Shown here in pieces: positions 6,738 through 62,024 of a stretch of DNA of 64,000 nucleotides (positions are counted from its first letter, which is position 1; every line of letters begins with the position of its first letter). The DNA lies in the NCBI GenBank assembly GCA_021783095.1, contig JAJXUG010000014.1:1895-65894 (forward strand), written 5' to 3'. A program made the translations under genes and the position numbers. Source of the DNA: Chloroflexota bacterium. Its GTDB lineage: Bacteria; Chloroflexota; Limnocylindria; Limnocylindrales; CSP1-4. The notes under the pieces were generated by a model, which worked only from the letters and a program-made list of their open reading frames with translations, searched no databases and was not told the origin of the DNA.

Positions 6738-7622
6738 TCAGCCCGCCAGCGCCCCCGCGATCGCGGCCACATGCGCCGCAGTCGTCCCGCAGCAGCCGCC
6801 GACGATCGTGGCGCCCAGATCGGCCACGCGCCGGGCGTAGGCCGCCGCCTCCTCGGGCGTGCCCGGGTATGTGGTCACGCCCTCGGCCGTCCCCGACGGG
6901 ATGCCCGCGTTCGCCTTGGCCACGATGTGGAGGCCCGGCGCGTGCGCGGCCAGGATCGGGATCACGGCCTCGACCGGCGCCCAGCCGTCGCCGCAGTTGG
7001 CGCCGATCCCCGCCACGCCCAGCGCCACGAGCTTGTCGGCTGCCTCCTCCGCGGGGTTGCCGAACATGGTCCGGTTGCGCGCGGCGAACACGAGGGTGCA
7101 GACCACCGGCAGCCCCGGCGCGCCCTCCCTGGCGCCCTCGACGGCGGCGATCGCCTCGTTGAGGTCCATCATCGTCTCGACCCAGATCACGTCCACGCCC
7201 GCCTCGGCGAGCGCGACGGCCTCCTGCGCGTAGGCGGCGCGGACCTCGCCCGGGTCGAGCAGCCCGTACGGGATCATCAGGCCGCCGGTCGGGCCCATCG
7301 AGCCCGCCACGAGGCGATCCGGACCAGCGGCCGAGCGCGCCACGGCCACCGCAGCACGGCAGACGTCCGCCGTCCGGCCCGCGATCTCCGAGTCGCCGAT
7401 GCGAATGGCGTTGGCGCCGAACGTCGAGGTCAGGACAAGGCCCGAGCCCGCCTCGACATGGCTGCGGTGCACGCCCTCGATCATCGCGGCGCCGTCCGGG
7501 GTCAGCAGCCACGCCTCGGGGGACTCCCCCACCGGCATGCCGGCGCTGAACAGGGCGGTGCCCATCGCGCCATCGGCGATGAGCGGGCGGGCGAGTGACG
7601 AGGGCGCGGGCAGGGTGGGCAT
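6738..7622 (-). CDS. homocysteine S-methyltransferase family protein (MmuM/BHMT-like)
   Basis: Pfam S-methyl_trans features: the N-terminal ADGAMGT motif and the C-terminal zinc-site GGCCGTTAAH. Confidence 0.8.
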   Translation of the reverse strand: MPTLPAPSSLARPLIADGAMGTALFSAGMPVGESPEAWLLTPDGAAMIEGVHRSHVEAGSGLVLTSTFGANAIRIGDSEIAGRTADVCRAAVAVARSAAGPDRLVAGSMGPTGGLMIPYGLLDPGEVRAAYAQEAVALAEAGVDVIWVETMMDLNEAIAAVEGAREGAPGLPVVCTLVFAARNRTMFGNPAEEAADKLVALGVAGIGANCGDGWAPVEAVIPILAAHAPGLHIVAKANAGIPSGTAEGVTTYPGTPEEAAAYARRVADLGATIVGGCCGTTAAHVAAIAGALAG

Positions 7623-7749: not shown

Positions 7750-9084
7750 TCAGCCCTTGACGGCCTGGTCCGCGATGTCGAGCGCCCGATCGATGATGTC
7801 GAATCCCTCGGCCAGCTGCTGCTCGTTGATGCACAGCGGCGGGTTGGTGTGGATCGAGTTGTTCGAGATCATGGTGTACAGCCCATTCTCGCGGAAGAAC
7901 TTGCCGATCGCCTTCATCTCGTCGCTGGTGCCGTTGAACGGCGTGATCGGCGTCCACGGGTCCTGCGAGCGGACGAGGTCCAAGATCCCGAACAGGCCGA
8001 TGCTGCGGTGCGCGCCCACCGATGGGTGCTTCGCGGCCAGCGCCTCGTGGTGCCGGCGCATGACCTCGCCCATCCGGGCCGAGTTGCCGATGAGGTCGTC
8101 CTCCTCGTAGACCTTGATCGTCGCCAGCGATGCCGCGAGCGAGACCGGGTGCGACGAGTACGTCAGGCCGCCGTAGAACATCCTGGTGTCCATGGCCTCG
8201 GCGATCTTGCCGTTCATGGCCACCGCGCCCAGCGGCAGGTAGGACGACGTCAGGCCCTTGGCCATCGTCATGAGGTCGGGCACGACGTCCCAGTGGTCCA
8301 CGGCGAACCAGCGACCGGTCCGGCCGAAGCCCGCCATCACCTCGTCGGCGACCATCATGATCCCGTACTTGTCGCACAGGTCCCGGACGCCCCGCAGGTA
8401 CCCGTCGGGCGGGATGAGGATGCCGTTGGTGCCGACGACAGTCTCGAGGAAGATCGCGGCGATCGTGTGCGCGCCCTCGTACTTGATGACGTCCTCGAGG
8501 CCGTTGAGCGCCTCCTCGGCCGGCCGCGGCTCCTTCTCGCCCCAGCGGTGCGTGTCGGGGTAGCGCACGACGCCGACGATGCCGGGCTCGTTGGCCCAGC
8601 GGCGGTAGTCGCCCGTGAGCGTCATCGCGCCGGCGGTCGCGCCGTGGTAGGCGCGGTACCGGGCGAGCAGCTTGTACTTGCCGGTCACGTGGCGCGCGAG
8701 CTTGATCGCGTTCTCGACGGCCTCCGCGCCGCCGAGCGTGAAGAACACCTTGTTCATGTCGCCCGGCAGGATCTCGGCCAGCTTGGCGCCGAGCCGGGCG
8801 CGGATCTCGGTGGCGAACGCGGGCTGGACGAACTGGAGCTTGGACGCCTGCTCGTTGATGGCGTCGATGACGCGCCGGTCGCCGTGGCCGATGTTGACCG
8901 ACATCAACTGCGCGTTGAAGTCGAGGATCCGCCGGCCCTCGGGCGTGTAGAGGTAGACGCCCTCGGCACGGTCGATCGCGAGCGGATCGAGCTGGCCCTG
9001 GATGGACCAGCTGAACATGGTGTGCGCGCGGGACAGCGAGACGATCTCCTCGCTGGTCATGCGCGGCGCGGCGCTGATGCCCAT
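7750..9084 (-). CDS. class III pyridoxal-phosphate aminotransferase (omega-amino acid/beta-alanine:pyruvate or diaminobutyrate transaminase type)
   Basis: Aminotran_3 hallmarks: GGAEAVENAIKLAR, ADEVMAGFGRTGRWFA, TMAKGLTSSYLPLGA (the PLP lysine) and YSSHP. A GGAGG RBS precedes the ATG at 9084. Confidence 0.85.
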   Translation of the reverse strand: MGISAAPRMTSEEIVSLSRAHTMFSWSIQGQLDPLAIDRAEGVYLYTPEGRRILDFNAQLMSVNIGHGDRRVIDAINEQASKLQFVQPAFATEIRARLGAKLAEILPGDMNKVFFTLGGAEAVENAIKLARHVTGKYKLLARYRAYHGATAGAMTLTGDYRRWANEPGIVGVVRYPDTHRWGEKEPRPAEEALNGLEDVIKYEGAHTIAAIFLETVVGTNGILIPPDGYLRGVRDLCDKYGIMMVADEVMAGFGRTGRWFAVDHWDVVPDLMTMAKGLTSSYLPLGAVAMNGKIAEAMDTRMFYGGLTYSSHPVSLAASLATIKVYEEDDLIGNSARMGEVMRRHHEALAAKHPSVGAHRSIGLFGILDLVRSQDPWTPITPFNGTSDEMKAIGKFFRENGLYTMISNNSIHTNPPLCINEQQLAEGFDIIDRALDIADQAVKG

Positions 9085-9360: not shown

Positions 9361-10821
9361 CTAGCCGGTAGCGGCCGCGGGGAACGGCGCGCTCGGGATC
9401 GCCTCGGCGAGGCGCAGGATCGTCGCGAGCGAGCGGTCCACGTCCTCGGTCGTGGTCCGCCAGCCCGAGACGGAGATCCGCATCACGCGCTGTCCGTGCC
9501 AGACCGAGCCGCCCAGCCACAGCGTCCCATCGCCCTGGACCGCGGCAACCACCGCGCCCGTCCGCGCGTCGGCGGCCGAACCGTCACCCGAGGGATCGTC
9601 GAAGCGGACGAGCACCTGGTTGAGCACGACGTCGTTGACCACGCGGATGCCCAGCGATGAAGGGGCCGCCGCGAGGCCGGCCGCGAACCGGAGTGCATGG
9701 TCGCAGGTGCGCCCGACCATCGCCGCCACGCCCTCGCGCCCCAGCGAGCGGATCGCCGCCCACACGGCGAACCCGCGCGCCCTCCGCGACGACTCGGCGA
9801 CCCAGTTGTACGGGTCCCGCTCGCCGCCCGCCGTCTCCACGTAGTACGCCGCGCCGAGCGTCATCGCCGCGTGGTGCGCGGCCGGACGTGCGCAGAACAC
9901 CAGGCCCGAGTCGTACGGGACGTTGAGCCACTTGTGCGCGTCGGTCGTCCAGGAGTCGGCCCGCTCGACGCCGGCAAGCAGGTGGCGCCTCGCCGGGTCG
10001 GCCGAGGCCCACAGCCCGAACGCTCCGTCGACGTGGAGCCAGCCGCCGCTGGCGCGGACGAGGTCCGTGATCTCCGGCAGGGGGTCGAACGCACCGGTGT
10101 TCACGTTGCCGGCCTGGGCGCAGACCAACGCGGGCCGGTCCATCCCGGCCAGCATCTCGGCGAGCGCATCTGCGCGCATCCGGCCCTGCCGGTCCGTCGG
10201 GACGCGGCGCACCCGGTCGCGGCCCATGCCCAGCATCTGGAGCGCGGCGTGGATGGTGACGTGCGCCTCCTCGCCCACCACCACCGGCACGTCGGGTGCG
10301 CTGAACAGCCCGTTGCGCTCGACATCCCAGCCGGCCTGCTCCAGCAGTGCGTGGCGAGCCGCGGCGAGCGCCGTGAACGACGCCATCGTGGCGCCGGTCG
10401 TGAACCCCGCCGAGGCCTCGGCGGGCAGGCCGAGCAGCTCTGCCGCCCACCGCGCCGCCACCTCCTCGGCGACGGCCGCCGCCGGCCCCATGACGTACAT
10501 CGCGGCGTTCTGGTCCCAGACGCTCGCGAGCCAGTCTGCGCCCACCGCGGCCGGCAGCCCGCCGCCGACGACGAAGCCGAAGTACCGCGGGCCCGCGCTC
10601 CGGACCATCCCCCCGGACGCGCCCGCCGCCAGCGCGTCGATCGTGGCCACCGGGTCCTTGCCCGCCTCCGGCAGCGGCCCCCCAAGGCGCTCGCGCAGTT
10701 CGGCCACGGAGGCAGTTGGCCCCACCCGGCCAGCGTCGAGGCCGGCCGCCCACGACCGGGCCAGGTCCGCCGCGCGGGCGAGGGCGGCGTCGGTGGCGCT
10801 GCGCGCGGTCTCGTGGTCCAT
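9361..10821 (-). CDS. group II PLP-dependent amino-acid decarboxylase (aspartate/diaminobutyrate/aromatic-amino-acid decarboxylase family)
   Basis: The DAHKWLNVPYDSG PLP-lysine motif and the length and architecture of group II decarboxylases. A GGGAG RBS lies 6 nt before the ATG at 10821. Confidence 0.85.
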   Translation of the reverse strand: MDHETARSATDAALARAADLARSWAAGLDAGRVGPTASVAELRERLGGPLPEAGKDPVATIDALAAGASGGMVRSAGPRYFGFVVGGGLPAAVGADWLASVWDQNAAMYVMGPAAAVAEEVAARWAAELLGLPAEASAGFTTGATMASFTALAAARHALLEQAGWDVERNGLFSAPDVPVVVGEEAHVTIHAALQMLGMGRDRVRRVPTDRQGRMRADALAEMLAGMDRPALVCAQAGNVNTGAFDPLPEITDLVRASGGWLHVDGAFGLWASADPARRHLLAGVERADSWTTDAHKWLNVPYDSGLVFCARPAAHHAAMTLGAAYYVETAGGERDPYNWVAESSRRARGFAVWAAIRSLGREGVAAMVGRTCDHALRFAAGLAAAPSSLGIRVVNDVVLNQVLVRFDDPSGDGSAADARTGAVVAAVQGDGTLWLGGSVWHGQRVMRISVSGWRTTTEDVDRSLATILRLAEAIPSAPFPAAATG

Positions 10822-11128
10822 CTTCAGCTCCCGCTCTGGCCATCGCCGGGTCACCATCGCCGGGTCAGCCTCGTGATCATCGCGCGGACGCCCCGAACGC
10901 GCCTGCTCGGGCTGGGCCCGGGCGCGCCGCGCCCGGGACGACTGATCGGCGTGCGCTCGAGGCTGCCAATCGTCCCCGCGCGTCCGCGCCAACGGCGCTG
11001 TCCGCGCTCCGCGAGCGGGGTATGCTCAGCCCATTGACCGCTGCGGGCGGATGCCCGCGGGCTCGCCGGCCCAAGACGCGGGACGGTAGGGTCCACCAGC
11101 GCGAGGCACTTCGAGGAGGCAGTTCGCG

Positions 11129-11980
11129 ATGCCCCGTATCGTCCGAGGCGCACTCCTGCAGGCTACCTGGACCGGCGACAAGGAGTCGATGATCCAGAAG
11201 CACGAGCAGTACGTGCACCAGGCGAAGCAGCAGGGTGCCCAGTTCATGCTCTTCCAGGAGCTGTTCTACGGGCCCTACTTCTGTCAGGTCCAGGACAAGA
11301 AGTACTACTCCTACACCGAGTACATCCCCGACGGACCCACCACCAAGCGCTTCCAGGCGCTGGCGAAGGAGACCGGGATGGTCCTCGTCGTGCCGATGTA
11401 CGAGGAGGACAGCCAGACCACCGGGATCTACTACAACACGGCCGCGGTGATCGACGCCGACGGGACGTACCTGGGCAAGTACCGCAAGACCCACATCCCG
11501 CACGTCGAGGGGTTCTGGGAGAAGTTCTACTTCCGCCCCGGAAACCTGGGCTACCCGGTGTTCCAGACGGCCGTGGGCAAGATCGGCGTCTACATCTGCT
11601 ACGACCGCCACTTCCCGGAGGGCGCCCGCGCGCTCGGGCTCAACGGCGCCGAGATCGTCCTGATCCCGTCGGCCACCTCGCGCGGCCTGTCCGAGTACCT
11701 GTGGCGCGTCGAGCAGGTCAGCCACTCGCTGGCCAACGGCTACTTCATCGGGACCATCAATCGGGTGGGCATCGAGAAGGAGATCGGGCCGGACGACTTC
11801 TACGGCCAGAGCTACTTCGTGGACCCGCTGGGCCAGTTCGTCGGCGCGGTCGGCAGCCCCTACGACGAGGAGCTGATCATCCGCGACCTCGACCTCGACG
11901 TGATCTCCAAGGTCCGCCAGACGTGGCAGTTCTACCGCGATCGACGGCCGGAGATGTACGGGGACCTGGTCAAGCCGTAG
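11129..11980 (+). CDS. beta-ureidopropionase / N-carbamoyl-amino-acid amidohydrolase (nitrilase/CN-hydrolase superfamily)
   Basis: CN-hydrolase triad context (E in FQELF, K in GKYRKTH, C in VYICYDRHFPE) and overall beta-alanine synthase-like sequence. Confidence 0.8.
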   Translation: MPRIVRGALLQATWTGDKESMIQKHEQYVHQAKQQGAQFMLFQELFYGPYFCQVQDKKYYSYTEYIPDGPTTKRFQALAKETGMVLVVPMYEEDSQTTGIYYNTAAVIDADGTYLGKYRKTHIPHVEGFWEKFYFRPGNLGYPVFQTAVGKIGVYICYDRHFPEGARALGLNGAEIVLIPSATSRGLSEYLWRVEQVSHSLANGYFIGTINRVGIEKEIGPDDFYGQSYFVDPLGQFVGAVGSPYDEELIIRDLDLDVISKVRQTWQFYRDRRPEMYGDLVKP

Positions 11981-12046
11981 TAGGCTGACGCCGGCTGCTC
12001 GGGCGAAGGGGTTCGCGAGCGGTCGGGCATCGGGTATGATCCCGCG

Positions 12047-12080
12047 CGGCTCGGCTGCCAGGAGGAGGGCAGCCGAGCCG
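12047..12080 (+). promoter_or_regulatory. 13-bp perfect stem-loop CGGCTCGGCTGCC-(AGGAGGAG)-GGCAGCCGAGCCG between the ureidopropionase and LLM genes
   Basis: Read directly from the sequence. The loop is a Shine-Dalgarno-like purine run. It may be an intercistronic terminator, attenuator or processing site. Confidence 0.45.
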
Positions 12081-12115
12081 TTCGATTCTCCGGGTCGTCC
12101 CGGACGGAGGGTCAG

Positions 12116-13111
12116 ATGCAGTTCGGGTTCACGCTCAAACCGGACCACACGATCGAGCGGACGCTCGCGTTGACCCGCCAGGCCGAGGCGGCCGGCTTCG
12201 GCTACGGCTGGCTGTTCGATTCCCACGTGCTGTGGCGGGACCCGTACCCGCTGCTCACGCTCATGGCGCAGGCCACCACGGACATGCACCTGGGCACCTG
12301 CGTCACCAACCCTGCCACACGCGAGCCGACGGTCACGGCGTCGGCGCTCGCGGTGCTCCAGGAGCTCTCCGGCGGGCGGATGGAGCTGGGCATCGGGCGC
12401 GGCGACTCGTCGCGCCGGGTGCTGGGCAAGCAGCCGACGTCGATGCGGGACCTCGAGCAGGCCGTGCACGTGATCCGCGCCCTGACCGAGGGCCACTCGA
12501 TCGAGTTCGAGGGTGCCATGCTCGAGCTGCCCTGGGTTGGCGCCGGGCACCAGCTGCCGGTGTGGATCGCGGGCTACGGCCCGGTCGCGCTCAAGCTCAC
12601 CGGGCGGATCGCGGACGGCGCCATGCTCCAGATCGGCGACCCGGACCTCATCCGGTGGTTCGTCTCCCAGGTTCGCGCGTCGGCCGAGGCGTCGGGCCGG
12701 GACCCGAACGCTGTGAAGGTGATGGCCGCGGCGCCCGCGCACGTGGGCGACCTGGCCGACGGCCGCGACCGCACCCGCTGGTTCCCGGCACTCGTGTCGA
12801 ACCACGTGGTCGACCTCGTGAACAAGTACCCCCGCGAGGACCTGCCGCAGGAGCTGACGGCCTACATCCGGAACCGCGAGGGCTACGACTACCTCCACCA
12901 CGCCGAGGTGGGCTCCTCGAACGCGTCGTTCGTCTCGGACGAGATCGTCGACCGCTTCTGCCTGGTCGGGCCGCCTGAAGCGCACCTCCAGCGGCTCCGG
13001 GAGCTGGCCGACGCCGGCGTGGACCAGTTCAACCTCTACCTGATGAACGGGAACGAGGAGGAGCAGCTCGAGCTCTACGGGCGCGAGATCATCCCTGCGC
13101 TGCGCAGCTGA
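12116..13111 (+). CDS. LLM-class (luciferase-like) flavin/F420-dependent oxidoreductase
   Basis: TIM-barrel luciferase-like monooxygenase family sequence throughout (GWLFDSH, ELGIGRGDS, VWIAGYGP). A GGAGGG RBS is present. Confidence 0.85.
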   Translation: MQFGFTLKPDHTIERTLALTRQAEAAGFGYGWLFDSHVLWRDPYPLLTLMAQATTDMHLGTCVTNPATREPTVTASALAVLQELSGGRMELGIGRGDSSRRVLGKQPTSMRDLEQAVHVIRALTEGHSIEFEGAMLELPWVGAGHQLPVWIAGYGPVALKLTGRIADGAMLQIGDPDLIRWFVSQVRASAEASGRDPNAVKVMAAAPAHVGDLADGRDRTRWFPALVSNHVVDLVNKYPREDLPQELTAYIRNREGYDYLHHAEVGSSNASFVSDEIVDRFCLVGPPEAHLQRLRELADAGVDQFNLYLMNGNEEEQLELYGREIIPALRS

Positions 13112-13267
13112 CAGGGAAAGGCGCGCCGAGCGGCGCGGTCATCGCCCGGCGTGCGCCCGCCTTACCGCCTGCCTGACGGCCCACCGCACCGGAGCCACCT
13201 CGTACTGGGCGAGAGGTACTCTCGACCCCAGAACCCCCGCAGCCGACAATCGCGGCGGAGGTACGCC

Positions 13268-13456
13268 ATGTCAGCGCTGTCCAGACTCCGCCGCCCCGAT
13301 CCTCGCTGGGAGGAGGAGGGGCCGGCCGCGCGCCGCGAGTACCGGCGCCGCCGCACGCGCGAGATGGCGTCGTTCGCGACCTCGCTCGTGGCGGCCGTGA
13401 TGGCGGTGGCCGCCCTCGCGCTCCGGCTCGGGAGTGCCCTGCTCAGCCGCGGATAG
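13268..13456 (+). CDS. small tail-anchored membrane protein (62 aa), hypothetical
   Basis: A GGAGG RBS lies 7 nt upstream of the ATG. The N-terminus is Arg-rich and there is a single C-terminal TM helix (FATSLVAAVMAVAALALRLG). Confidence 0.4.
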   Translation: MSALSRLRRPDPRWEEEGPAARREYRRRRTREMASFATSLVAAVMAVAALALRLGSALLSRG

Positions 13457-13562
13457 CGCAAACCTCCTCCGAGGCGTCGTGCCCGGGTCTACGATGGGCT
13501 GACACGCGCCACCCCGTCCGACGGGTGCAGCCGGCGGGGCATCCCAACGCCAAGGAGGAAGG

Positions 13563-14954
13563 ATGCGCACCCTGTTCGCCAACGGCACGATCGTCACTGC
13601 CGATGGCTCCTACCGAGCGGACGTGCTCGTCGAGGGCGAGACGATCGTGCAGATCGGTGCCGGCCTCGCAGCCTCGGTCACGGCCGACGAGGTGATCGAC
13701 GCTGGCGGCAAGTACGTGATCCCCGGCGGCATCGACGCCCACACGCACATGAAGCTGCCGTTCGGCGGCACCTACGCGAAGGACGACTTCGAGACCGGCA
13801 CCCGCGCCGCTGCGTTCGGCGGGACGACGACCATCGTGGACTTCGCGGTGCAGTCGAAGGGCGAGACGCTGCACCAGGGCCTCGACAAGTGGTTCGCGCT
13901 GGCCGAGGGCATGGCCGTCGCCGACTACGGCTTCCACATGATCATGTCCGACGTCACGGACGCCTCGCTGCCCGAGATGGACCAGCTGGTCGACGAGGGC
14001 GTCCCGGACTTCAAGCTGTTCACCGCGTACCCGGGCGTCTTCTACTCGCCCGACGACCACATCTTCCGCGCCCTCAAGCAGACCGCCAAGAACGGCGGCC
14101 TGATCCTGATGCACGCCGAGAACGGGCCGGTCATCGACGTCCTGGCGGCCGACCAGGTCGCGAAGGGGGTCACCGACCCGATCGGGCACGGCCTGGCGCG
14201 CGACTCCCGGATGGAGGGCGAGGCGACGAACCGCGTCATCCGGATGGCGGAGGTCGCCGGCGCGCCCGTCTACTTCGTCCACATGTCGGCCAAGGAGGCG
14301 CTCAAGGCGCTCGTCGAGGCCCGCGGCCGCGGCGCGATGGCCTGGGCGGAGACGTGCCCGCAGTACCTGTACCTCACGCTCGACGACCTCGGTCACGGGT
14401 TCGAGGGCGCCAAGTTCGTCTGCTCGCCGCCCCTCCGGACGCCCGACCACGCCGTCGAGCTCTGGAACGCGCTCAAGCGCGACGACATCGCGCTGGTCGG
14501 CACCGACCACTGCCCGTTCGACTTCCACGGGCAGAAGGAGATGGGCCGCGGCGACTTCCGCAAGATCCCCAACGGCCTGCCGGGCGTCGAGGAGCGGGTC
14601 GACCTGATGCACCAGGCCGTCGCCGACGGCAAGCTCTCCAAGGAGCGCTGGGTCGAGGTCGTGTCGACCGCGCCCGCCAAGATGTTCGGGATGTACCCGC
14701 GGAAGGGCGCCATCGCGGTCGGGTCCGACGCGGACATCGTCGTCTACGATCCGGCCCGCACGCACGTGCTCTCGGCCAAGACGCACCACATGGACGTCGA
14801 CTACTCGTGCTACGAGGGCATGACGGTCCGGGGCGGCTCGGACATCGTGATGTCCCGCGGCTCGGTCATCGTCCGCAACGGCGAGTTCACCGGCCGCAAG
14901 GGCGCCGGCAAGTTCATCAAGCGGTCGCGCGCCACGTTCCCGCGCATCAGCTAG
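13563..14954 (+). CDS. dihydropyrimidinase / D-hydantoinase (cyclic amidohydrolase)
   Basis: The GGIDAHTHM metal-binding motif, the carboxylated-Lys region and the full-length hydantoinase architecture. An AAGGAGGAAGG RBS is present. Confidence 0.85.
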   Translation: MRTLFANGTIVTADGSYRADVLVEGETIVQIGAGLAASVTADEVIDAGGKYVIPGGIDAHTHMKLPFGGTYAKDDFETGTRAAAFGGTTTIVDFAVQSKGETLHQGLDKWFALAEGMAVADYGFHMIMSDVTDASLPEMDQLVDEGVPDFKLFTAYPGVFYSPDDHIFRALKQTAKNGGLILMHAENGPVIDVLAADQVAKGVTDPIGHGLARDSRMEGEATNRVIRMAEVAGAPVYFVHMSAKEALKALVEARGRGAMAWAETCPQYLYLTLDDLGHGFEGAKFVCSPPLRTPDHAVELWNALKRDDIALVGTDHCPFDFHGQKEMGRGDFRKIPNGLPGVEERVDLMHQAVADGKLSKERWVEVVSTAPAKMFGMYPRKGAIAVGSDADIVVYDPARTHVLSAKTHHMDVDYSCYEGMTVRGGSDIVMSRGSVIVRNGEFTGRKGAGKFIKRSRATFPRIS

Positions 14955-14968
14955 GGACGCTGCCTCTC

Positions 14969-15001
14969 ACGACCCCCGTGGGCCCGCCCCGCGGGGGTCG
15001 T
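14969..15001. terminator. bidirectional stem-loop ACGACCCCCG-N12-CGGGGGTCGT between convergent genes
   Basis: A perfect 10-bp inverted repeat read from the sequence. Confidence 0.5.
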
Positions 15002-15047
15002 TCCGTGTCGCGCGCCGGATCGCCGCGTCGCAGCCAGCGCCGGTCCC

Positions 15048-15458
15048 TCAGCTCACGCCGACGAGGTCCTCCGCGCGCTGGCCCAAGGCCTGGCGCGCGG
15101 TGGCCACGTCGTCCACGCAGAAGGCCCATTCCGCGAAGCCCGGGCGCTCCCCCGCCTTCACCACGCCCGTCACGCTCACGCCGGCCCGCGCGAGGCGGTC
15201 GGCCACGTCCCCGAAGGCGCCGGGCCGGTCGCGAACCTCGACCATGAGCGGCTCGCCCTCGATGAACGGGTGGCCGAGGCCCTTGATGACGCGCCGCGCA
15301 GCGTCATCGTCGGTGGTGGTGACGAACAGGCACTCGAGGGGCCCGCTGCCGACGCACGCGACGTGGGCGATCTCGATGCTGAAGGCCTCGAAGGCCTTGA
15401 TGAGGCGAGTCAGCTCGCCCGGGTGGTTGTCGAGCTGGACGACGAATTGGCGGGCCAT
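15048..15458 (-). CDS. ACT-domain protein (136 aa)
   Basis: A tandem ACT-like beta-alpha-beta-beta-alpha-beta pattern. GGAGAGG RBS. It is the C-terminal part of a much longer artefactual ORF (15048..16454). Confidence 0.65.
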   Translation of the reverse strand: MARQFVVQLDNHPGELTRLIKAFEAFSIEIAHVACVGSGPLECLFVTTTDDDAARRVIKGLGHPFIEGEPLMVEVRDRPGAFGDVADRLARAGVSVTGVVKAGERPGFAEWAFCVDDVATARQALGQRAEDLVGVS

Positions 15459-15617
15459 CTGCGCACCTCTCCGGCGGGCCTGGCGGCCCGGCATGACGGT
15501 GCCATCCTCTCGGCACGCCGTCGGCCGGGCCAGTGCCCTTCGGGGAAGTCCAGACCCGCCACCCGGCGCCGCGGCGGGTAGATTGGACGGCGACGAAGCC
15601 GCACTCGGAGCCGCGCA

Positions 15618-15932
15618 ATGTTCGTGACCCTCGTCCACTGCCACGTCAAGGCGGATGCCGTTGACGCCTTCATCGATGCCTGCCGCTCGAACCACGAGGG
15701 GTCGGTGCGCGAGCCGGGCAACGTCAGGTTCGACGTCCTCCAGCTCGCCGAGGACCCAACGCGCTTCGTCCTGTACGAGTGGTATGTCGACGAGGCGGCC
15801 GCCAAGGCCCACAAGGACACGCCGCACTACGCTGCCTGGCGCGAGTCGACAGCGGACATGTTCGAGGAGCCGCGCTACGGCGTCCGCTACGTCGGCCTGG
15901 CACCGCTGGTCCCGCCGACCCTGGAGGCCTGA
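15618..15932 (+). CDS. antibiotic-biosynthesis-monooxygenase (ABM) family protein
   Basis: A 104-aa ferredoxin-like fold with the ABM signature (VTLVHCHVK...FVLYEWYVDEAAAKAH). Confidence 0.75.
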   Translation: MFVTLVHCHVKADAVDAFIDACRSNHEGSVREPGNVRFDVLQLAEDPTRFVLYEWYVDEAAAKAHKDTPHYAAWRESTADMFEEPRYGVRYVGLAPLVPPTLEA

Positions 15933-15975: not shown

Positions 15976-17193
15976 GTGAGCGCCGGCGAGGGCGGCATCG
16001 GCCAGGTGGCCGTCGGCCGGCTGCCGCGGATCACCTTCGGCGCCGGGGTCGCCGCGAGGCTGCCGTCGATCGTGGCGGGGCACGGCCGTCGGGCGCTGCT
16101 CGTCCGGGGCACGCACTCGCTCGCCGCCGGCGGGCGACTGGAGCCGCTCCGGGACGCCCTCGCCGATGCGGGCGTCGAGCTCGCGGGCGAAGCTGCCGTC
16201 AGCGGCGAGCCCTCCCCTGCCCTGGTCGACGGGATCGCGGCCGCGCACCGCGGCGACGGGATCGACGTCGTCCTCGGGATCGGCGGCGGCTCGGCGCTCG
16301 ACACCGCCAAGGCCGTCTCGGGCCTGCTCCGCGTGGACGCTCCTGTCACGGACTTCCTCGAGGGCCTGCCAGGCGCCCGCCCCTGGCCGGGCCCGTCCGT
16401 GCCGCTGGTCGCCGTGCCCACCACGGCCGGCACCGGCAGCGAGGCCACGCGCAACGCCGTGATCAGCGAACGCGGCCCCGCCGGCTACAAGCGCTCGTTC
16501 CGCGACGAGCGGCTCGTCCCGGCCGACGCCGTCGTGGACCCGGACCTGCTCGCCGGGCTCCCCGCGGACCGCATCGCCGAGAACGGGATGGACGCGCTCG
16601 CGCAGCTGCTCGAGTCGTACGTGTCGCTGCGGGCGGGCGCGTTCACCGACGCGCTGGCGATCGCCGGGCTTGCCGCCGCGCGGGACGGCCTCCTCGCCTG
16701 GCACGCGGATCCCGAGGGTCCCGGAGCCCCGGCCGCCCGCGAGCGGATGGCGTGGGCCGCGCTCCTGTCGGGGATCTGCCTGGCGAACGCCGGGCTGGGC
16801 GCGGTGCACGGGCTCGCGTCGCCGCTGGGCGCCCAGTTCCCCGTCCCGCACGGTGCCGCCTGCGGCGCGACGATGGCACCGGTCACTGCGGCCAACGTCG
16901 CGGCGCTCGAGGCGCGGCAGCCCGACAGCCCGGCCCTCCGACGCTACGCGGTCCTGGGCCGGCTGCTCGCGCGCCTGCCCGACACCACGCCCGACTCGGC
17001 GGCGCGGTCGGCGCTGGTCGACACCGTCGGGACCTGGACCCGTGTCCTCGGCGTGCCGGGCCTCGCCTCGTGGGGCGTCGTCGAGGCGGACATCCCGGCG
17101 GTCGTCGCGGACGCCCGGGGCAGCTCGATGCGCACGAACCCGATCGTGCTGACCGATGACGAGCTGGCCGCGGTCCTCGCGGCCTCGATGTAG
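15976..17193 (+). CDS. iron-containing (group III) alcohol dehydrogenase
   Basis: The Fe-ADH motifs GGGSALDTAK and the histidine cluster. GTG start. Confidence 0.85.
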   Translation: MSAGEGGIGQVAVGRLPRITFGAGVAARLPSIVAGHGRRALLVRGTHSLAAGGRLEPLRDALADAGVELAGEAAVSGEPSPALVDGIAAAHRGDGIDVVLGIGGGSALDTAKAVSGLLRVDAPVTDFLEGLPGARPWPGPSVPLVAVPTTAGTGSEATRNAVISERGPAGYKRSFRDERLVPADAVVDPDLLAGLPADRIAENGMDALAQLLESYVSLRAGAFTDALAIAGLAAARDGLLAWHADPEGPGAPAARERMAWAALLSGICLANAGLGAVHGLASPLGAQFPVPHGAACGATMAPVTAANVAALEARQPDSPALRRYAVLGRLLARLPDTTPDSAARSALVDTVGTWTRVLGVPGLASWGVVEADIPAVVADARGSSMRTNPIVLTDDELAAVLAASM

Positions 17194-17200: not shown

Positions 17201-18121
17201 CTAAAGGCCCTCGGCGGCGACCCCGTCGTCGTCGTCGGAAGCGATCGCCGTGCGGACCTCCGCGGCGGCGAACCCGAGCACGGCGATCGCGCACAGGATG
17301 GCGATCCCGATGGCGAGCAGCTGCCCAACCGACAGGGAGCCGATCACCGCCGGGTCGCGCCACGTCGCGGCGACCACCGCCCGCGCCGTCGCCCAGAGCC
17401 CGACAACCAGGAAGAACGACGCCCCGTTCCGCTTGGCGAAGACGCCCAGCGCCATGAGCCACCAGGCCACGCCGCCGACGAGCAGCGTCGCCACCGCCTC
17501 CATCGCCTGCGACGGCCAGGACGGGATCTCGGGCGCGAGCGAACCCCACGGCCCGCCGCCCAGGTAGCGCGTAGCGAGCGAGATGTCGCTGGGCACGCCC
17601 TGCCCGGAGCCGCCGAGCAGCATCGCGAGCTTGAGCAGCCCGAGGAGCAGCAGCAGCGGCAGGGCCAGCGCGTGGAGCCAGCGGCCCAGCGGCGCGCCCA
17701 GCAGCAGCGCCACGATCGACCCCGTGATCGCCCCGCCCACCACGCCCATCGAGAGCTCCAGGCCGCCCTTGGAGATGTCGACCAGCGCGCCCGGGTCGGC
17801 CTGGTAGTAGGCGAGGTGGAGGAGCGCGTACCCCAGCCGCCCGCCCACCACGGCGCCCGGCATCGCGGCCACGGCGATGCACAGCAGGTCGTCGGCGCGC
17901 AGGTGGTTGGGCCCGTCATCCTCGGGGTCGGGCGACGGCCAGTCGGCCGGGACGGACATGTCAACCGGTGTCCAGCGGCCCGCCAGCGCCGCGAACAGCA
18001 GCGCGAGGAGCACGGCGGCCGCCCCCGCCATCGTCTCCCACCGCACCGTGAGCCCGGCGAGCGTGACGGTGGCCGGGAACGTGAAGGTGATCAGCGCGGG
18101 GATCGACGCAAGGGGCACCAC
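17201..18121 (-). CDS. Lgt-like membrane protein (divergent paralog of prolipoprotein diacylglyceryl transferase with degenerate signature)
   Basis: Colinear similarity to Lgt (GGRLGYALL, DISKGGLELSMGVVGGAI, WPSQAMEA), but the G-R-x-G-N-F-x-N-x-E signature is replaced by LLGGSGQG. Start uncertain. Confidence 0.55.
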   Translation of the reverse strand: MVPLASIPALITFTFPATVTLAGLTVRWETMAGAAAVLLALLFAALAGRWTPVDMSVPADWPSPDPEDDGPNHLRADDLLCIAVAAMPGAVVGGRLGYALLHLAYYQADPGALVDISKGGLELSMGVVGGAITGSIVALLLGAPLGRWLHALALPLLLLLGLLKLAMLLGGSGQGVPSDISLATRYLGGGPWGSLAPEIPSWPSQAMEAVATLLVGGVAWWLMALGVFAKRNGASFFLVVGLWATARAVVAATWRDPAVIGSLSVGQLLAIGIAILCAIAVLGFAAAEVRTAIASDDDDGVAAEGL

Positions 18122-18358: not shown

Positions 18359-20584
18359 CTACTTCACCAGGGCGTAGACGGCGGCGTGGGCCACGACGCC
18401 ACCGTTCGAGATCGTGAGCCACGCCTGGTTGCTGCCGGCCAGCGCGGTCTTCGCGAAGGTCGCGACCACGTGGAACGTGGCACTCGTGCCGCTCGCGAGG
18501 GTGACCGAGGAGCGGTCGACCAAGAAGGTCACGCCGTGCGTCGCGCCCCAGGCGGCGATGGCGAGGCCGAACGTCGCCTCCGAGCCCGAGACGTTCTTCA
18601 TCGTCACCGCGTAGGAGCGCGTCTGGCCCGAGCCCGACGGCGTGGCGCCGAAGCTCACGCTGACCGGGTCGAGGACCACCTGGGCGGTGGTCGCGCTCGC
18701 CAGGTTGACCCGGCCCGAACCGGTGATGTTGACGTTGGTCACGAACGTGGTGCCGTCCGCTGACGAGGTGAGGATCCCGGCGTCAGCGGTGTTCACGACG
18801 GCGGAGCGGATGGCCCATGCCGGCCAGGTCGGGTGCTGCTGGACCAGGATGGCGGCGACGCCGGCGAGGTGCGGCGTGGCCATCGAGGTGCCCTGGAAGA
18901 AGGCGAAGCACGGCTGCCCGCCGCAGAACGAGTTCGGGATCGAGGACAGGACGTTGACGCCGGGGGCCACCACATCGGGCTTGACGCGGAAGTCCACGTT
19001 CGTCGGGCCCTGGCTCGAGAAGCCCGCCATGATGTCGGTGTTCGCGGTCTGGAAGTACGACTCAACCGCGCTGATCGTCGCGGACTGGCCATTGGCCGCC
19101 AGGAGCGCCGGCCGGTCGGCAAGCGAGGCCATGTAGGCCGGGATCGTTGGTGCGGGGAGGGTCCCGTCGGTGGCCATCGCCACCGGGTCCCCGGCCGCGT
19201 TGTTCACGATGACGGCGGCCACGGCACCCGCCTCCTGGGCGAACCGGACCTTGGTGGTGAAGGTGCAGGTGCCGCGCGAGACCACGGCGATCTTGCCGGC
19301 CATGCTGCCCGCGGCGAGGGCGGCGCAGGCGGTCCCCAGACCGCCGGTGCCGGTCGCGACGCCGAGCGGCGCCATGAGGTCGGCCGACACCTTCGCAAAG
19401 TCGCCGGCCGCCAAGCCGTACGACGCGGCGTCGACGGTGAGCGGCGTCCCGACGAAGTGCCCGACGGTCGAGGCGCCGGCGGTGAGGGCGCGGCTGGCGG
19501 ATCCGGGCGACTCCACCGTGGAGAAGCCCGGGCCGCTGTTGCCGGCCGCGACCGCGCTGATCATGTTGGCCTGGTCGAGGTTGTCGACCGCGACCGCGAC
19601 CAGATCCTGGATGCCCTTCTGTCCGCCGCCAAGGCTCATGTTGACGATGTCCATGCCATCGGCGTACGCAGCGTCGAGCGCGTTGAGGATGTCCTCGCTG
19701 CGGGCGTTGAGGACGTCGCCCGGGAAGATGTTGTAGTTGCCGAGCAGGGCGCGCGGTGCGACGCCCGAGATCCCGTACGGGATCGCCACGCCGTCGACCG
19801 TTGCCGGGGTGTTGTAGTCGCAGGCGATGGTGCCCGCGACGTGCGTGCCGTGCTCCTGGACCGGCGCGGCATCGAAGCCGTTCTGGTTGAGCTTGTTGTT
19901 GAAGACCCGGGCCACGAACACCTTGTTGTTGGTGTAGGCCTTCTGCCCCAGCTGGGTGATGGTTGGGTAGCCGTCGTCGCTGAAGCACGGGCTCTTGATG
20001 TCGATGCCCGTGTCGATGACGCCCACCTTCACGCCGTCACCGGCGGTCGCCGGGGCCTGGCCGGCGTTCTTCCAGCCCGCGGCCGCGCTGATCGCACCCA
20101 GGTCGGGATCGTCCGCCGTCGGGTAGTAGAGGCCCTCGTACTCGGCGCGGACCACGAGCGATGACGTCCGGATCGTCGCGAGCGAGGTGCCGTTGAGCTT
20201 GACCGCGACCGCGTTGAGCGAGAGGTCGTAGCCCCCCACGACCTGCGCCTTGGGGGCCGCGGTGTGGAGCCAATGCTTGAACTGGTTGCGCAGGGACGCA
20301 AGGTGGGCCTTGTACGACTTCACCGTGGCGCTGTTGAAGTCGATCTTCTTGCCCTGGGCCGGCTTGGTCTTCGCGTACGTGGACAGCGGTGCGCCGGCAA
20401 GCTGGACCAGCGCGGATCCCTTGTCGACGGTGACCCTGGCCGGCGTCGCGCCGTCCGTGACGACGCCGCTTGGCACCGCCGCCAGGGTGCCGCCCGGCAC
20501 CGAGGCGATGAGGGCAGCGGCCAACGCCGCCGCGAGGCTGAGCCTCACGCGAACCACGATCGGGTCCCTCCCTTCGTGAACCAC
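18359..20584 (-). CDS. secreted subtilisin-like serine protease (peptidase S8) with I9 propeptide and PA-domain insert
   Basis: Signal peptide and catalytic D (VGVIDTGID), H (HGTHVAG) and S (GTSMATPH) motifs. Confidence 0.85.
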   Translation of the reverse strand: MVHEGRDPIVVRVRLSLAAALAAALIASVPGGTLAAVPSGVVTDGATPARVTVDKGSALVQLAGAPLSTYAKTKPAQGKKIDFNSATVKSYKAHLASLRNQFKHWLHTAAPKAQVVGGYDLSLNAVAVKLNGTSLATIRTSSLVVRAEYEGLYYPTADDPDLGAISAAAGWKNAGQAPATAGDGVKVGVIDTGIDIKSPCFSDDGYPTITQLGQKAYTNNKVFVARVFNNKLNQNGFDAAPVQEHGTHVAGTIACDYNTPATVDGVAIPYGISGVAPRALLGNYNIFPGDVLNARSEDILNALDAAYADGMDIVNMSLGGGQKGIQDLVAVAVDNLDQANMISAVAAGNSGPGFSTVESPGSASRALTAGASTVGHFVGTPLTVDAASYGLAAGDFAKVSADLMAPLGVATGTGGLGTACAALAAGSMAGKIAVVSRGTCTFTTKVRFAQEAGAVAAVIVNNAAGDPVAMATDGTLPAPTIPAYMASLADRPALLAANGQSATISAVESYFQTANTDIMAGFSSQGPTNVDFRVKPDVVAPGVNVLSSIPNSFCGGQPCFAFFQGTSMATPHLAGVAAILVQQHPTWPAWAIRSAVVNTADAGILTSSADGTTFVTNVNITGSGRVNLASATTAQVVLDPVSVSFGATPSGSGQTRSYAVTMKNVSGSEATFGLAIAAWGATHGVTFLVDRSSVTLASGTSATFHVVATFAKTALAGSNQAWLTISNGGVVAHAAVYALVK

Positions 20585-61589: not shown

Positions 61590-61601
61590 CGTCGGGCGAT
61601 T

Positions 61602-61912: not shown

Positions 61913-62024
61913 CGACGCTCGCCCACCCCTCGCTCACTTCACAGGAATCAGGCGGACGCGCCCGGGTTCACGCGAAGTGCATCGATTATCGGATCAGCCC
62001 GCACGGGCCACCGCGCCCGGGCTC

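Follow-up and report, generated by a model that had tools for sequence, protein, structure and literature searches.

The window analyzed here, a 64,000-nucleotide stretch of a contig from a Chloroflexota bacterium of the class Limnocylindria, carries a gene cluster that appears to encode a reductive pathway of uracil and thymine catabolism. Judging from sequence and gene context, the luciferase-like (LLM) protein of this cluster is likely an F420H2-dependent uracil/thymine reductase non-homologous to PydA, and would probably represent a novel type of uracil reductase. The original prediction had put this protein forward as a candidate for the missing dihydropyrimidine dehydrogenase step, a proposal supported by its HMM family, by synteny, by the absence of PydA-type genes within 10 kb, and by a displacement observed in Rhodobacterales. 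No published report of an LLM-type F420H2-dependent uracil/thymine reductase was found. If the assignment is true, a pyrimidine role of the enzyme may explain the production of F420, a rare cofactor, in some bacteria.

Gene content of the locus

The four genes at the core of the locus, encoding a CN-hydrolase, the LLM protein, a 62-aa protein and a dihydropyrimidinase, all lie on the plus strand where they had been predicted (Table 1); the accompanying framing within Actinomycetota was wrong. GC3 values of 0.94-0.96 in the CN-hydrolase, LLM and dihydropyrimidinase genes are of the coding type, and independent MAG annotations also call the 62-aa open reading frame as a gene. The aminotransferase and decarboxylase expected upstream on the minus strand are both present, the decarboxylase being nearest and the aminotransferase second.

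Table 1. Features of the locus and its surroundings, with the profile matches obtained
Feature	Position	Strand	Evidence and remarks
Homocysteine S-methyltransferase	6738-7622	-	~4.5 kb upstream of the LLM gene
Class III (omega) aminotransferase, candidate PydD (beta-alanine/beta-aminoisobutyrate aminotransferase)	7750-9084	-	PF00202, 290 bits
Group II PLP-dependent decarboxylase	9361-10821	-	PF00282, 135 bits; accessory; divergent from CN-hydrolase
CN-hydrolase (nitrilase superfamily), candidate PydC (N-carbamoyl-beta-alanine amidohydrolase)	11129-11980	+	PF00795, 216 bits
LLM gene leader: -10-like TATGAT and 13-bp hairpin	12035-12079	+	
F420-class LLM, proposed uracil/thymine reductase	12116-13111	+	Bac_luciferase domain; TIGR03842, 432 bits (cutoff 295)
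62-aa Arg-rich small membrane protein	13268-13456	+	GGAGG ribosome-binding site; C-terminal TM helix
Dihydropyrimidinase / D-hydantoinase (PydB)	13563-14954	+	TIGR02033, 565 bits (cutoff 393)
ACT-domain protein, 136 aa	15048-15458	-	Weak PF01842 match in MAG annotation
ABM-fold (LsrG-like) small protein	15618-15932	+	PF03992; LsrG model, 96 bits (cutoff 135)
Iron-type alcohol dehydrogenase (Fe-ADH)	15976-17193	+	PF00465, PF25137

The nearest solved structure to the dihydropyrimidinase is the dihydropyrimidinase 3sfw (497 bits). The closest solved relatives of the CN-hydrolase are N-carbamoylputrescine amidohydrolase (208 bits) and the Drosophila and human beta-ureidopropionases (173 and 167 bits), with D-carbamoylases far below these at ~90 bits; the protein reaches no NCBIfam equivalog cutoff. 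The aminotransferase, called at 444 aa in MAG annotations, belongs to the NCBIfam subfamily PRK06062 (527 bits, cutoff 472). The best NCBIfam matches of the decarboxylase are DABA decarboxylase and PanP, both far under cutoff.

The LLM protein and its relation to Mer

By profile-HMM search, the LLM protein falls into one particular F420-LLM subfamily; this family, TIGR03842, is described as a 'hypothetical equivalog' without assigned function. Identity is 85% or higher in each of the best 120 cluster representatives, so the LLM orthogroup is tightly constrained. An AF2 model (pLDDT 87.8) searched against the PDB returned Mer for all of the top 8 matches, followed by FGD1, FGD2 and Adf, and the best structural matches are exclusively F420 enzymes. 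By both sequence and fold, the nearest characterized homologue is Mer (PDB 8QPL, 1Z69, 1F07), which aligns over the full length at about 30-33% identity with TM-scores of 0.77-0.83. Even so, the protein falls below the cutoffs of both Mer models (164 vs 276 bits and 153 vs 349 bits).

The stretch surrounding the cis-peptide position that follows beta-3 (VTNP) is shared with Mer. Asp96 of Mer and the carboxamide at 178, whose contacts are with F420 and the pterin's pyrimidine ring, correspond to Asp97 and Gln172, both invariant in the LLM family. In contrast, the catalytic Glu6 of Mer is replaced family-wide by Thr, Val or Cys (Thr in the window); the Mer E6Q mutant retains 0.4% activity (PMC11094777). 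Unlike Mer, the LLM lid carries the family-specific invariant residues Trp222-Phe223, Asn229-His230 and Asp233. The genomic contexts also differ: Mer belongs to C1 metabolism, whereas the LLM family is found with pyrimidine-catabolic genes in aerobic bacteria of soil and sea. Two points count against the proposed function. His37, a candidate acid, is Ser in Streptomyces. Furthermore, C=N, C=O and alcohol groups are the usual targets of characterized F420-LLMs, and an enone-like C5=C6 bond would, to our knowledge, be a new target for reduction by an enzyme of the LLM fold.

Conservation of the gene cluster

Conservation was assessed over 80 loci from different species, 32 of them fully flanked (8 kb or more on each side). 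Among these 32, a CN-hydrolase gene lies no further than 10 kb from the LLM gene in 26, a dihydropyrimidinase gene in 27, both in 24 and either one in 29; an aminotransferase homologue is found in 17/32, and the decarboxylase is weakly conserved (5/32). Of the 68 loci with enough upstream sequence, 42 have the CN-hydrolase gene immediately 5' of the LLM gene on the same strand. The linkage of LLM to dihydropyrimidinase and a ureidopropionase-type hydrolase, for which conserved synteny had been sought, is kept across four bacterial phyla, in Chloroflexota (CN-hydrolase-LLM-dihydropyrimidinase), Acidobacteriota (dihydropyrimidinase divergent, NCS1 and CN-hydrolase downstream), Streptomyces (CN-hydrolase-aminotransferase...dihydropyrimidinase-LLM, LLM identity 48%) and Rhodobacterales. 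A methylmalonate-semialdehyde dehydrogenase (TIGR01722, 578 bits, cutoff 448) also emerged in 20 loci when neighboring open reading frames were clustered without bias, as did NCS1 nucleobase symporters in 11 and an ABC transporter in 14-19. All pathway steps except that of PydA are represented among the conserved neighbors. Exceptions that count against our reading are L007 and L008, in which no dihydropyrimidinase was found within 10 kb of LLM; L053, L059 and L073, in which both hydrolases are missing near LLM; and the LLM operon of Paracoccus alcaliphilus, with no hydA within 10 kb.

In Rhodobacterales the carbamoylase is of the M20 family, non-homologous to the CN-hydrolase, yet the link between LLM and dihydropyrimidinase is still kept. 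Leisingera plasmids carry cofG-cofH-cofD-cofC-cofE-npdG(Fno)-LLM-TetR divergent from pntAB-aminotransferase-M20 carbamoylase-hydA-NCS1, while the relative Roseinatronobacter has PreT-PreA-TetR beside M20 carbamoylase-hydA. The two RutR-like TetR regulators are orthologous (53% identical), and the full operon of F420 biosynthesis, Fno and LLM sits at the PreT-PreA position of the relative, beside the orthologous regulator. None of the 10 Leisingera plasmid records is among the PreA hits. LLM is the last gene of F420-biosynthesis operons, and 5 Limnocylindria loci have a cofE homologue adjoining LLM. The window itself yielded neither F420-biosynthesis genes nor an Fno gene, which counts against the proposed function.

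Search for PydA and PreTA

The window had been predicted to lack PydA, PreT and PreA. This holds for PreT- and PreA-type genes, but one gene of the DHO_dh fold is present and is the biosynthetic PyrD. E. coli PreA matches this gene (62285-63319, minus strand) by tblastn. It was rejected as PreA, scoring 112 bits against a PreA model cutoff of 335 and adjoining pyrE, and its match to the dihydroorotate dehydrogenase model PRK07259 (285 bits, cutoff 269) together with the pyrE adjacency identifies it as PyrD. The window has no other DHODH-fold gene. For PreT, neither tblastn nor Pfam scans of most other plausible genes turned up a candidate in the window. Searches with PreT and PreA of E. coli and Roseinatronobacter and with the PyrD of the window detected no PreT, PreA or DHODH-like gene within 10 kb of LLM in any of the 80 loci. 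Since hydA clusters with neither PreTA nor LLM within 9 kb also exist (Thalassospira), a local lack of PydA cannot serve as a diagnostic sign by itself.

Proposed pathway and comparison with known systems

Under the proposed function, step 1 would be carried out not by the iron-sulfur flavoprotein PydA/PreTA but by a single-subunit TIGR03842 TIM-barrel enzyme using reduced F420. In the reductive direction, F420H2 would pass a hydride to uracil or thymine at C6 and C5 would be protonated by an acid in the active site, giving 5,6-dihydrouracil or dihydrothymine. The dihydropyrimidinase would then open the ring, the CN-hydrolase would release beta-alanine or beta-aminoisobutyrate with NH3 and CO2, and the class III aminotransferase would form malonic or methylmalonic semialdehyde. 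In the window this semialdehyde may be reduced by the Fe-ADH, a candidate malonic-semialdehyde reductase for a PydE-like step as defined previously (PMC7332683); in many relatives it would instead be oxidized by the CoA-acylating methylmalonate-semialdehyde dehydrogenase. Fno would restore F420H2 with NADPH, as the Leisingera and Paracoccus operons make explicit, and in Chloroflexota Fgd could also serve.

The LLM loci share their logic and most enzyme families with the Pyd pathway (PydA/PreTA, PydB, PydC, PydD, PydE/MSDH; PMC7332683): dihydropyrimidinase, an N-carbamoyl-beta-alanine-type hydrolase, omega-aminotransferase, semialdehyde reductase or dehydrogenase, nucleobase transporters and a RutR-like regulator. 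The characterized NADPH-, NADH- and ferredoxin-dependent variants of PydA all have a DHODH-like FMN domain and Fe-S clusters (PMC7332683), whereas the conserved oxidoreductase of the LLM loci is a TIM-barrel F420 enzyme without an Fe-S domain, non-homologous to PydA. Like the LLM protein, RutA is a luciferase-like TIM barrel; it acts on uracil and its operon is under a RutR-type TetR. RutA is, however, an FMN/O2-dependent ring-cleaving monooxygenase (TIGR03612), and the Rut pathway runs without a dihydropyrimidinase or a ureidopropionase. The TIGR03612 model is outside the best 25 families for the LLM protein and hence scores at most 27.8 bits against a cutoff of 498. A precedent is Fht, an F420H2-dependent picrate reductase of the LLM/LLHT family whose substrate is used as carbon and nitrogen source (PMC8498797). 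As in our proposal, an LLM-type F420H2 enzyme opens utilization by placing a hydride on a ring carbon of an electron-poor (hetero)aromatic compound; Fht, compared here by description only, differs in its nitroaromatic substrate and its occurrence in few Actinomycetales. A putative F420 'luciferase-family' yanthine reductase has also been proposed, from gene neighborhood only, in reductive uric-acid clusters of Chloroflexota (PMC12507026). Likened by role, it is a case of an F420-LLM replacing a DHODH-like or flavoprotein reductase (YgfK/UacX), and both proposals involve reductive dearomatization of a uracil-type ring ahead of amidohydrolase cleavage. The yanthine reductase neighbors SsnA, HyuA, YgeW/UacY, YgeY as well as YgeX are not recurrent in the LLM loci.

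Alternative functions

The LLM protein could catalyze another redox step of the pyrimidine pathway as an analogue of PydE, with a conventional PydA encoded elsewhere in the genome, which we regard as unlikely. The most plausible such step, itself rather improbable, would be F420-dependent interconversion of malonic or methylmalonic semialdehyde with 3-hydroxypropionate or 3-hydroxyisobutyrate. The known F420-LLMs Adf, Fgd and fHMAD are indeed alcohol/carbonyl oxidoreductases, the Leisingera cluster lacks an obvious semialdehyde-handling enzyme beside its aminotransferase, and the PydA survey covered LLM neighborhoods of ~10 kb on each side. However, the semialdehyde step is already covered near LLM, by the dehydrogenase in 20 loci and by Fe-ADH in the window and close relatives, while the PydA step is covered in no locus. 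The nearest homologue is Mer rather than Adf or Fgd, with the pyrimidine-contacting residues kept, and the position of the Rhodobacterales F420 module also favors the PydA step. A function as a Mer-like methylene-tetrahydropterin (H4MPT/H4F) reductase feeding the homocysteine S-methyltransferase encoded upstream, its place among Pyd genes being coincidental, would agree with the kinship to Mer in sequence and fold, but we consider it extremely improbable in view of the sub-cutoff Mer scores and the family-wide loss of Glu6. The methyltransferase gene lies near LLM in closest relatives only (1/32 fully flanked loci), and linkage to both hydrolases across four phyla is not coincidental.

The cluster might not be strictly for uracil and thymine, with LLM reducing a different N-heterocycle that enters the hydantoinase/carbamoylase route, such as a pyrimidine that is modified or 5-substituted, a precursor of hydantoin or a ureide derived from a purine. 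TIGR02033-type enzymes also serve as D-hydantoinases, certain hydA clusters plainly function in the use of hydantoins or D-amino acids (Sulfitobacter), the CN-hydrolase is under every equivalog cutoff, and a putative F420-LLM reductase has been suggested for uric-acid reduction in Chloroflexota (PMC12507026). We nevertheless find this doubtful: the omega-aminotransferase, methylmalonate-semialdehyde dehydrogenase, NCS1 and RutR-like TetR that recur as neighbors fit uracil/thymine catabolism, the CN-hydrolase resembles beta-ureidopropionase and N-carbamoylputrescine amidase far more than it does D-carbamoylases, and no SsnA/YgeW/YgeY/YgeX-type uricolytic genes are among the conserved neighbors.

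Accessory genes and the LLM leader

The 62-aa protein, with an RRDP[WF]W..G..ARR motif and a TM helix, is encoded 3' of LLM in ~14 Limnocylindria loci. The Acidobacteriota, Streptomyces and Leisingera clusters lack it, and it has no family match; it is a lineage-specific accessory gene, and the decarboxylase may likewise be accessory. The ACT-domain protein, possibly a small-molecule sensor, is conserved in close relatives only (L004, L007, L008). Fe-ADH, which reaches no NCBIfam model at cutoff, is near LLM in the closest relatives only. With the ABM-fold protein it forms a conserved pair in the nearest-relative loci L004, L006 and L007, and the pair is found in 4 of 80 genome loci (L008, L011, L019, L022); L007 and L008 have both Fe-ADH and methylmalonate-semialdehyde dehydrogenase.

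The LLM gene is preceded by a -10-like TATGAT (12035-12040) and a hairpin (12047-12079) with a 13-bp stem and an invariant GGAGGAGG loop. This motif occurs once in the window and has no Rfam match, and the leader is kept in 13 Limnocylindria-type loci. In the alignment 96% of cells are paired, with 5 pairs changed on both sides and 4 G-U cells. The folding z-score is -3.9, and the observed score was matched by 0 of 500 shuffles.

Gene content of the locus

The window has a G+C content of about 72%, and codon-position GC bears out the four co-directional genes of the original prediction, which encode a CN-hydrolase, a luciferase-like (LLM) protein, a small protein of 62 residues and a dihydropyrimidinase. 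The latter is followed by an ACT-domain gene, an ABM-fold gene and an iron-type alcohol dehydrogenase. Among characterized dihydropyrimidinases, the window enzyme is best matched by PDB entry 3sfw (497 bits). For the CN-hydrolase, the nearest NCBIfam model is N-carbamoylputrescine amidase (264 bits versus a cutoff of 410), and comparison with the PDB gave 208 bits for N-carbamoylputrescine amidohydrolase, 167-173 bits for beta-ureidopropionases and about 90 bits for D-carbamoylases; judged by its context, it is a candidate ureidopropionase (PydC). The same contig is present in public MAG assemblies, such as GCA_027325005.1. The cluster had been framed as one of Actinomycetota, but its host belongs to the Chloroflexota, and near-identical LLM sequences are labelled Candidatus Limnocylindrales.

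Features of the window and of plasmid loci carrying F420 operons
Feature	Coordinates	Strand	Evidence or position
Class III aminotransferase	7750-9084	-	beyond the group II decarboxylase, upstream side
Group II PLP decarboxylase	9361-10821	-	upstream of CN-hydrolase
CN-hydrolase	11129-11980	+	PF00795, 216 bits
LLM leader (-10-like element and hairpin)	12035-12079	+	
LLM protein	12116-13111	+	PF00296, 214 bits; TIGR03842
62-residue protein	13268-13456	+	inside mechanical ORF 13151-13456
Dihydropyrimidinase/D-hydantoinase	13563-14954	+	TIGR02033, 565.5 bits vs cutoff 393
Lgt-like protein	17201-18121	-	Pfam LGT match
S8 peptidase with PA domain	18359-20584	-	
Second Lgt-like protein	26751-27743	-	by eye only
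Second F420-class LLM (with the adjoining HbpS-like gene)	39226-40670	-	TIGR03560, Rv1855c family, 254 bits vs cutoff 231
660-residue serpin	45633-47615	+	
N,N-dimethylformamidase beta-subunit-like protein	50266-51801	-	
pyrE	60903-61589	-	pyrD-pyrE pair, 60903-63319
pyrD (DHO_dh fold)	62285-63319	-	adjoins pyrE
F420 operon, plasmid loci L088 and L091 (Leisingera aquaemixtae plasmid NZ_CP081061.1)	L088 4510-11860; L091 1-6378		
F420 operon, plasmid locus L089 (Paracoccus alcaliphilus)			

Conservation of the gene neighborhood

A family-alignment scan with one genome per species recovered more than 594 LLM relatives. The top 80 loci came from several Chloroflexota lineages, from Acidobacteriota (Terriglobia and Blastocatellia) and from two MAGs labelled Actinomycetota; their flanks, about 10 kb either side of the LLM gene, were searched by tblastn with the window proteins and with PreT and PreA. 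In 32 loci the LLM gene has 8 kb or more on both sides; of these, 26 contain a CN-hydrolase, 27 a dihydropyrimidinase, 24 both and 29 at least one of the two, and 17 have an aminotransferase nearby. Of the 68 loci whose upstream sequence is long enough to tell, 42 have the CN-hydrolase directly upstream of LLM on the same strand. The dihydropyrimidinase of Acidobacteriota is transcribed divergently from LLM, with an NCS1 transporter and the CN-hydrolase encoded downstream on the opposite strand. Because the arrangement differs between phyla, the linkage is not simply inherited gene order. The predicted association of LLM with dihydropyrimidinase and CN-hydrolase holds in Chloroflexota, Acidobacteriota and Streptomyces.

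Unbiased clustering of neighboring ORFs added a CoA-acylating methylmalonate-semialdehyde dehydrogenase (20 loci; TIGR01722, 578 bits versus 448), a NitT/TauT-like ABC transporter (14-19 loci) and NCS1 nucleobase:cation symporters (11 loci; TIGR00800, 386 bits versus a cutoff of 353). The reductive pyrimidine pathway has been defined as PydA, PydB, PydC, PydD, PydE/MSDH and transport (PMC7332683), and the recurrent neighbors represent every one of these steps around LLM except PydA. LLM occurs with no Pyd genes nearby in Paracoccus and in three of the genome loci (L053, L059 and L073).

Search for a PydA-type enzyme

With PreT and PreA of E. coli (NC_000913.3) as queries, tblastn gave one real match in the window, a gene of DHO_dh fold. 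As a hidden PydA this gene was rejected: it passes the PyrD cutoff (PRK07259, 285 bits versus 269), fails that of the PreA model (112 versus 335) and adjoins pyrE, which identifies it as the PyrD of pyrimidine biosynthesis. When most other plausible genes of the window were scanned with Pfam, no PreT/PreA-type protein emerged. The claim that the window lacks PydA, PreT and PreA accordingly stands, with the caveat that a DHO_dh-fold gene is present, but as PyrD. In the 80 genome loci, about 10 kb on each side, neither PreT and PreA of E. coli and Roseinatronobacter nor the PyrD of the window found any match.

The PyrD of the window, a class 1 dihydroorotate dehydrogenase, has the putative catalytic loop NLSCGGGGRGG; the more usual loop is an NLSCPN-type motif. 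On the Thalassospira marina plasmid pCSC3H3 (L094), a hydA cluster comprises TetR, an omega-aminotransferase, methylmalonate-semialdehyde dehydrogenase, a CN-hydrolase and an ABC transporter, with neither PreTA nor LLM within 9 kb, so local absence of PydA is not diagnostic alone.

Clusters in Streptomyces and Rhodobacterales and the link to F420

Annotated plasmids and chromids were searched by tblastn for TIGR03842 homologues, which were found in Streptomyces (48% identity), Leisingera (45%, 10 records) and Paracoccus alcaliphilus (43%). LLM comes immediately after a dihydropyrimidinase on S. rimosus pSRIMDV3 and Streptomyces sp. BHT-5-2 p1, and a CN-hydrolase 64-66% identical to that of the window and a class III aminotransferase are encoded a few kb upstream. 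In Leisingera and Paracoccus, LLM is the last gene of a cofG-cofH-cofD-cofC-cofE-npdG operon, which encodes complete F420 biosynthesis and the NADPH:F420 oxidoreductase Fno.

The Leisingera operon sits in a pyrimidine-catabolism cluster, whose divergent side carries pntAB (an NADPH-forming transhydrogenase), an AptA-like omega-aminotransferase, an M20 amidase of the 'hydantoinase/carbamoylase family', hydA and an NCS1 symporter. On a related Rhodobacterales replicon, that of Roseinatronobacter, PreT-PreA-TetR stands beside the same M20 amidase-hydA pair, and the TetR that directly follows LLM in Leisingera is 53% identical to the Roseinatronobacter TetR. Mycetohabitans has a canonical M20 amidase-PreT-PreA-hydA cluster. 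A homologue of PreA was seen on 85 plasmid records, usually no more than 10 kb from hydA; none of these records is from Leisingera. The comparison of Leisingera with Roseinatronobacter is one of positional, non-orthologous displacement of PreTA by an 'F420 module', and this displacement persists though the M20 carbamoylase of Rhodobacterales is of a different protein family from the Chloroflexota CN-hydrolase.

No cof genes were found in the window. A homologue of cofE (F420:glutamate ligase) lies 1-3 kb upstream of LLM in five Limnocylindria loci. One of these, L075, has the CN-hydrolase and the dihydropyrimidinase 5-8 kb downstream of LLM; L053 and L059, with full flanks, have neither within 10 kb; and in L060 and L061 the flanks are too short to judge. 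The cof operons and cofE neighbors link the LLM family genetically to F420 biosynthesis, and LLM itself is a candidate to bind and use this cofactor. The window also encodes a second F420-class LLM, which lies directly upstream of, and slightly overlaps, a gene of the HbpS-like heme-degrading protein family.

Family, fold and active site of the LLM protein

When compared with profiles of the F420-LLM subfamilies, as the original prediction proposed, the protein is a full-length member of TIGR03842 (F420_CPS_4043), above the curated cutoff (432.4 bits versus 295.45, residues 2-329 of 331). PGAP assigns the same family name to the homologues of Leisingera and Paracoccus. TIGR03842 is large, and its only annotation is that of a 'hypothetical equivalog'. 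It is also unusually constrained: the best 120 cluster representatives all show at least 85% identity, and among full-length representatives in a library clustered at 50% identity, the best reach only about 45-52%. LLM contains only PF00296, and no PF01180, Fe-S or GltD-like domain, so the claim made here is that it works like a PydA, not that it is one.

By sequence, the closest solved structures are those of Mer, the F420-dependent methylene-H4MPT reductase (E = 3e-37, full length), followed by F420-dependent hydroxymycolic acid dehydrogenase, Fgd and Adf. An AlphaFold (AF2) model built from 24 family sequences is confident except for a lid at residues 225-270 (pLDDT 87.8, pTM 0.88). In a Foldseek comparison of this model with the PDB, the best eight matches are all Mer (TM 0.77-0.83) and ranks 1-28 are all F420 enzymes (Mer, FGD1, FGD2, Adf and Fgd), with FMN-type LLMs ranking lower. 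By its (beta/alpha)8 luciferase-like fold, the protein thus belongs with the F420-dependent luciferase-like hydride transferases (LLHT).

Identity with Mer itself was rejected on its profiles (PRK02271, 164 bits versus a cutoff of 276; TIGR03555, 153 versus 349) and on its active site. In jMer, Glu6 at the end of beta-1 protonates the substrate, and the E6Q variant keeps 0.4% of kcat (PMC11094777); the equivalent residue is Thr6 in the window protein and T, V or C in all the family members examined. In Mer, F420 and the pyrimidine ring of the pterin are contacted by Asp96 and by the carboxamide of residue 178; at the corresponding positions the LLM family has the invariant Asp97 and Gln172. 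Invariant residues of the lid that are the family's own are Trp222-Phe223, Asn229-His230 and Asp233. Asn229 and His230 are candidates for the proton donor, and His37 is not universal. By alignment, Cys62-Val63 is paired with Gly61-Val62 of jMer, the non-prolyl cis-peptide bulge after beta-3, inside a conserved xVTNP motif. Cys62 was rejected as a DPD-like catalytic acid, as it aligns with this cis-peptide position beneath F420 and is Met or Leu in Streptomyces and Leisingera. Assignment to the pyrimidine oxygenase RutA was also rejected: TIGR03612 (cutoff 498) is not among the 25 best-scoring families, the lowest of which scored 27.8 bits.

Proposed reaction and alternatives

We consider that TIGR03842 enzymes probably reduce the C5=C6 bond of uracil and thymine with F420H2, a reading in which substrate, direction and cofactor use are drawn from the gene neighborhoods and the family relationships. 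LLM would then supply dihydropyrimidines to the dihydropyrimidinase. Electrons would pass from NADPH, supplied by PntAB in Leisingera, through Fno to F420 and on to the pyrimidine; in Chloroflexota, F420 could alternatively be reduced by Fgd before F420H2 reduces the pyrimidine. The potential of F420, about -340 mV, is roughly that of NADPH, the donor of classical PydA, so F420H2-driven uracil reduction should, by this comparison, be thermodynamically feasible. A precedent is picrate reductase, an F420H2 enzyme of the LLM type that adds hydride to an electron-poor aromatic ring (PMC8498797).

We disfavor the reading in which LLM catalyzes another redox step of the same pathway, such as reduction of malonic semialdehyde: the semialdehyde step is already encoded beside LLM in many loci and the PydA step in none of the 80, and the F420 module occupies the PreTA position of a relative. 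A less likely possibility is action on a different heterocycle, since enzymes of TIGR02033 are also used in hydantoin pathways and no equivalog cutoff is reached by the CN-hydrolase; against it, the neighbors are those typical of uracil and thymine catabolism, and the CN-hydrolase is much nearer to beta-ureidopropionase and N-carbamoylputrescine amidase than to D-carbamoylases. The relationship to Mer would fit a role in C1 metabolism together with a nearby homocysteine S-methyltransferase, but that gene is not conserved with LLM, and the missing catalytic Glu and the Mer cutoffs, which LLM does not reach, also led us to reject this role.

Significance

Taking pyrimidine reduction as the preferred reading, we lean slightly toward a broader one, in which TIGR03842 proteins would be the enzymes that physiologically reduce uracil and thymine in many Chloroflexota, Acidobacteriota and Streptomyces and in some Rhodobacterales, an evolutionarily unrelated fourth type of 'PydA' that uses F420H2 and is free of Fe-S clusters. 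The F420-biosynthesis and Fno operon of Leisingera and Paracoccus would then be horizontally acquired and serve mainly this reaction. According to a 2021 review of F420, studies of F420-dependent enzymes in bacteria had been confined to Actinobacteria, and the reason why Proteobacteria and Chloroflexi make F420 was an open question. If correct, the broader reading would give the first defined physiological role of F420 in Proteobacteria and a core-metabolic one in Chloroflexota, and the cluster makes the question directly testable in the cultivable Leisingera, Paracoccus and Streptomyces rimosus. The most widespread route of pyrimidine degradation would also gain a new, non-homologous enzyme for its committed step, and F420-dependent luciferase-like chemistry would extend to the reductive dearomatization of uracil. 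With relatives also numbering thousands in metagenomes, knowing what TIGR03842 does would allow the recycling of nitrogen and nucleobases to be better annotated in lineages that are abundant in soil and freshwater, such as Limnocylindria and Terriglobia. A small, single-subunit uracil reductase without Fe-S clusters could serve biocatalysis, for example of dihydropyrimidines and beta-amino acids.

Within the incomplete coverage of the full-text literature searched, no paper was found that links F420 or deazaflavin to dihydropyrimidinase, dihydropyrimidine dehydrogenase, dihydrouracil or hydantoinase, or that mentions TIGR03842. The nearest idea comes from a 2025 study of Chloroflexota uric-acid clusters, in which, on the basis of gene neighborhood, a putative F420 'luciferase-family' reductase replaces YgfK/UacX (PMC12507026). 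That article also discusses variants of the Pyd pathway, and the only paper on a PydA variant found among its references concerns the ferredoxin-dependent enzyme. What is likely to be new here is a non-homologous enzyme with a different cofactor for the first step of a known pathway.

Leader hairpin, small protein and other genes of the window

The leader of LLM contains a -10-like TATGAT and, after it, a hairpin of 13 bp (CGGCUCGGCUGCC / GGCAGCCGAGCCG) whose GGAGGAGG loop is invariant; the motif occurs once in the window. Covariation supports the hairpin: across 13 Limnocylindria-type loci, 96% of cells are paired, five pairs change on both sides and some cells are G-U, and none of 500 shuffles reached the observed score. 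The folding z-score is -3.9. The hairpin could be a 5' stabilizing stem-loop, a ribosome standby site or a regulatory element. Rfam gave no match, to the hairpin or elsewhere, over the whole window at gathering thresholds or over 10800-15200 at E of at most 5, so there is no riboswitch or leader of a known type. No significant structure was seen in the leaders of the other three genes (CN-hydrolase, small ORF and dihydropyrimidinase), and a sigma-70/terminator consensus scan of 10700-15700, uninformative at this G+C content, found nothing.

The 62-residue protein is Arg-rich, with an RRDP[WF]W..G..ARR motif and a C-terminal transmembrane helix, and matches no family in Pfam or NCBIfam. About 14 Limnocylindria loci keep it just downstream of LLM, and the corresponding clusters of other phyla lack it. 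It is a genuine small membrane protein restricted to the Limnocylindria lineage, and because of this confinement it was rejected as a core component.

A secreted S8 peptidase, a serpin whose N-terminus carries a long extension, and an N,N-dimethylformamidase beta-subunit-like protein are encoded elsewhere in the window and appear unrelated to the LLM cluster. There are also two paralogues resembling Lgt, the prolipoprotein diacylglyceryl transferase, and the one nearer to LLM travels with the Pyd/LLM cluster in 17 of the 80 loci, in Chloroflexota.
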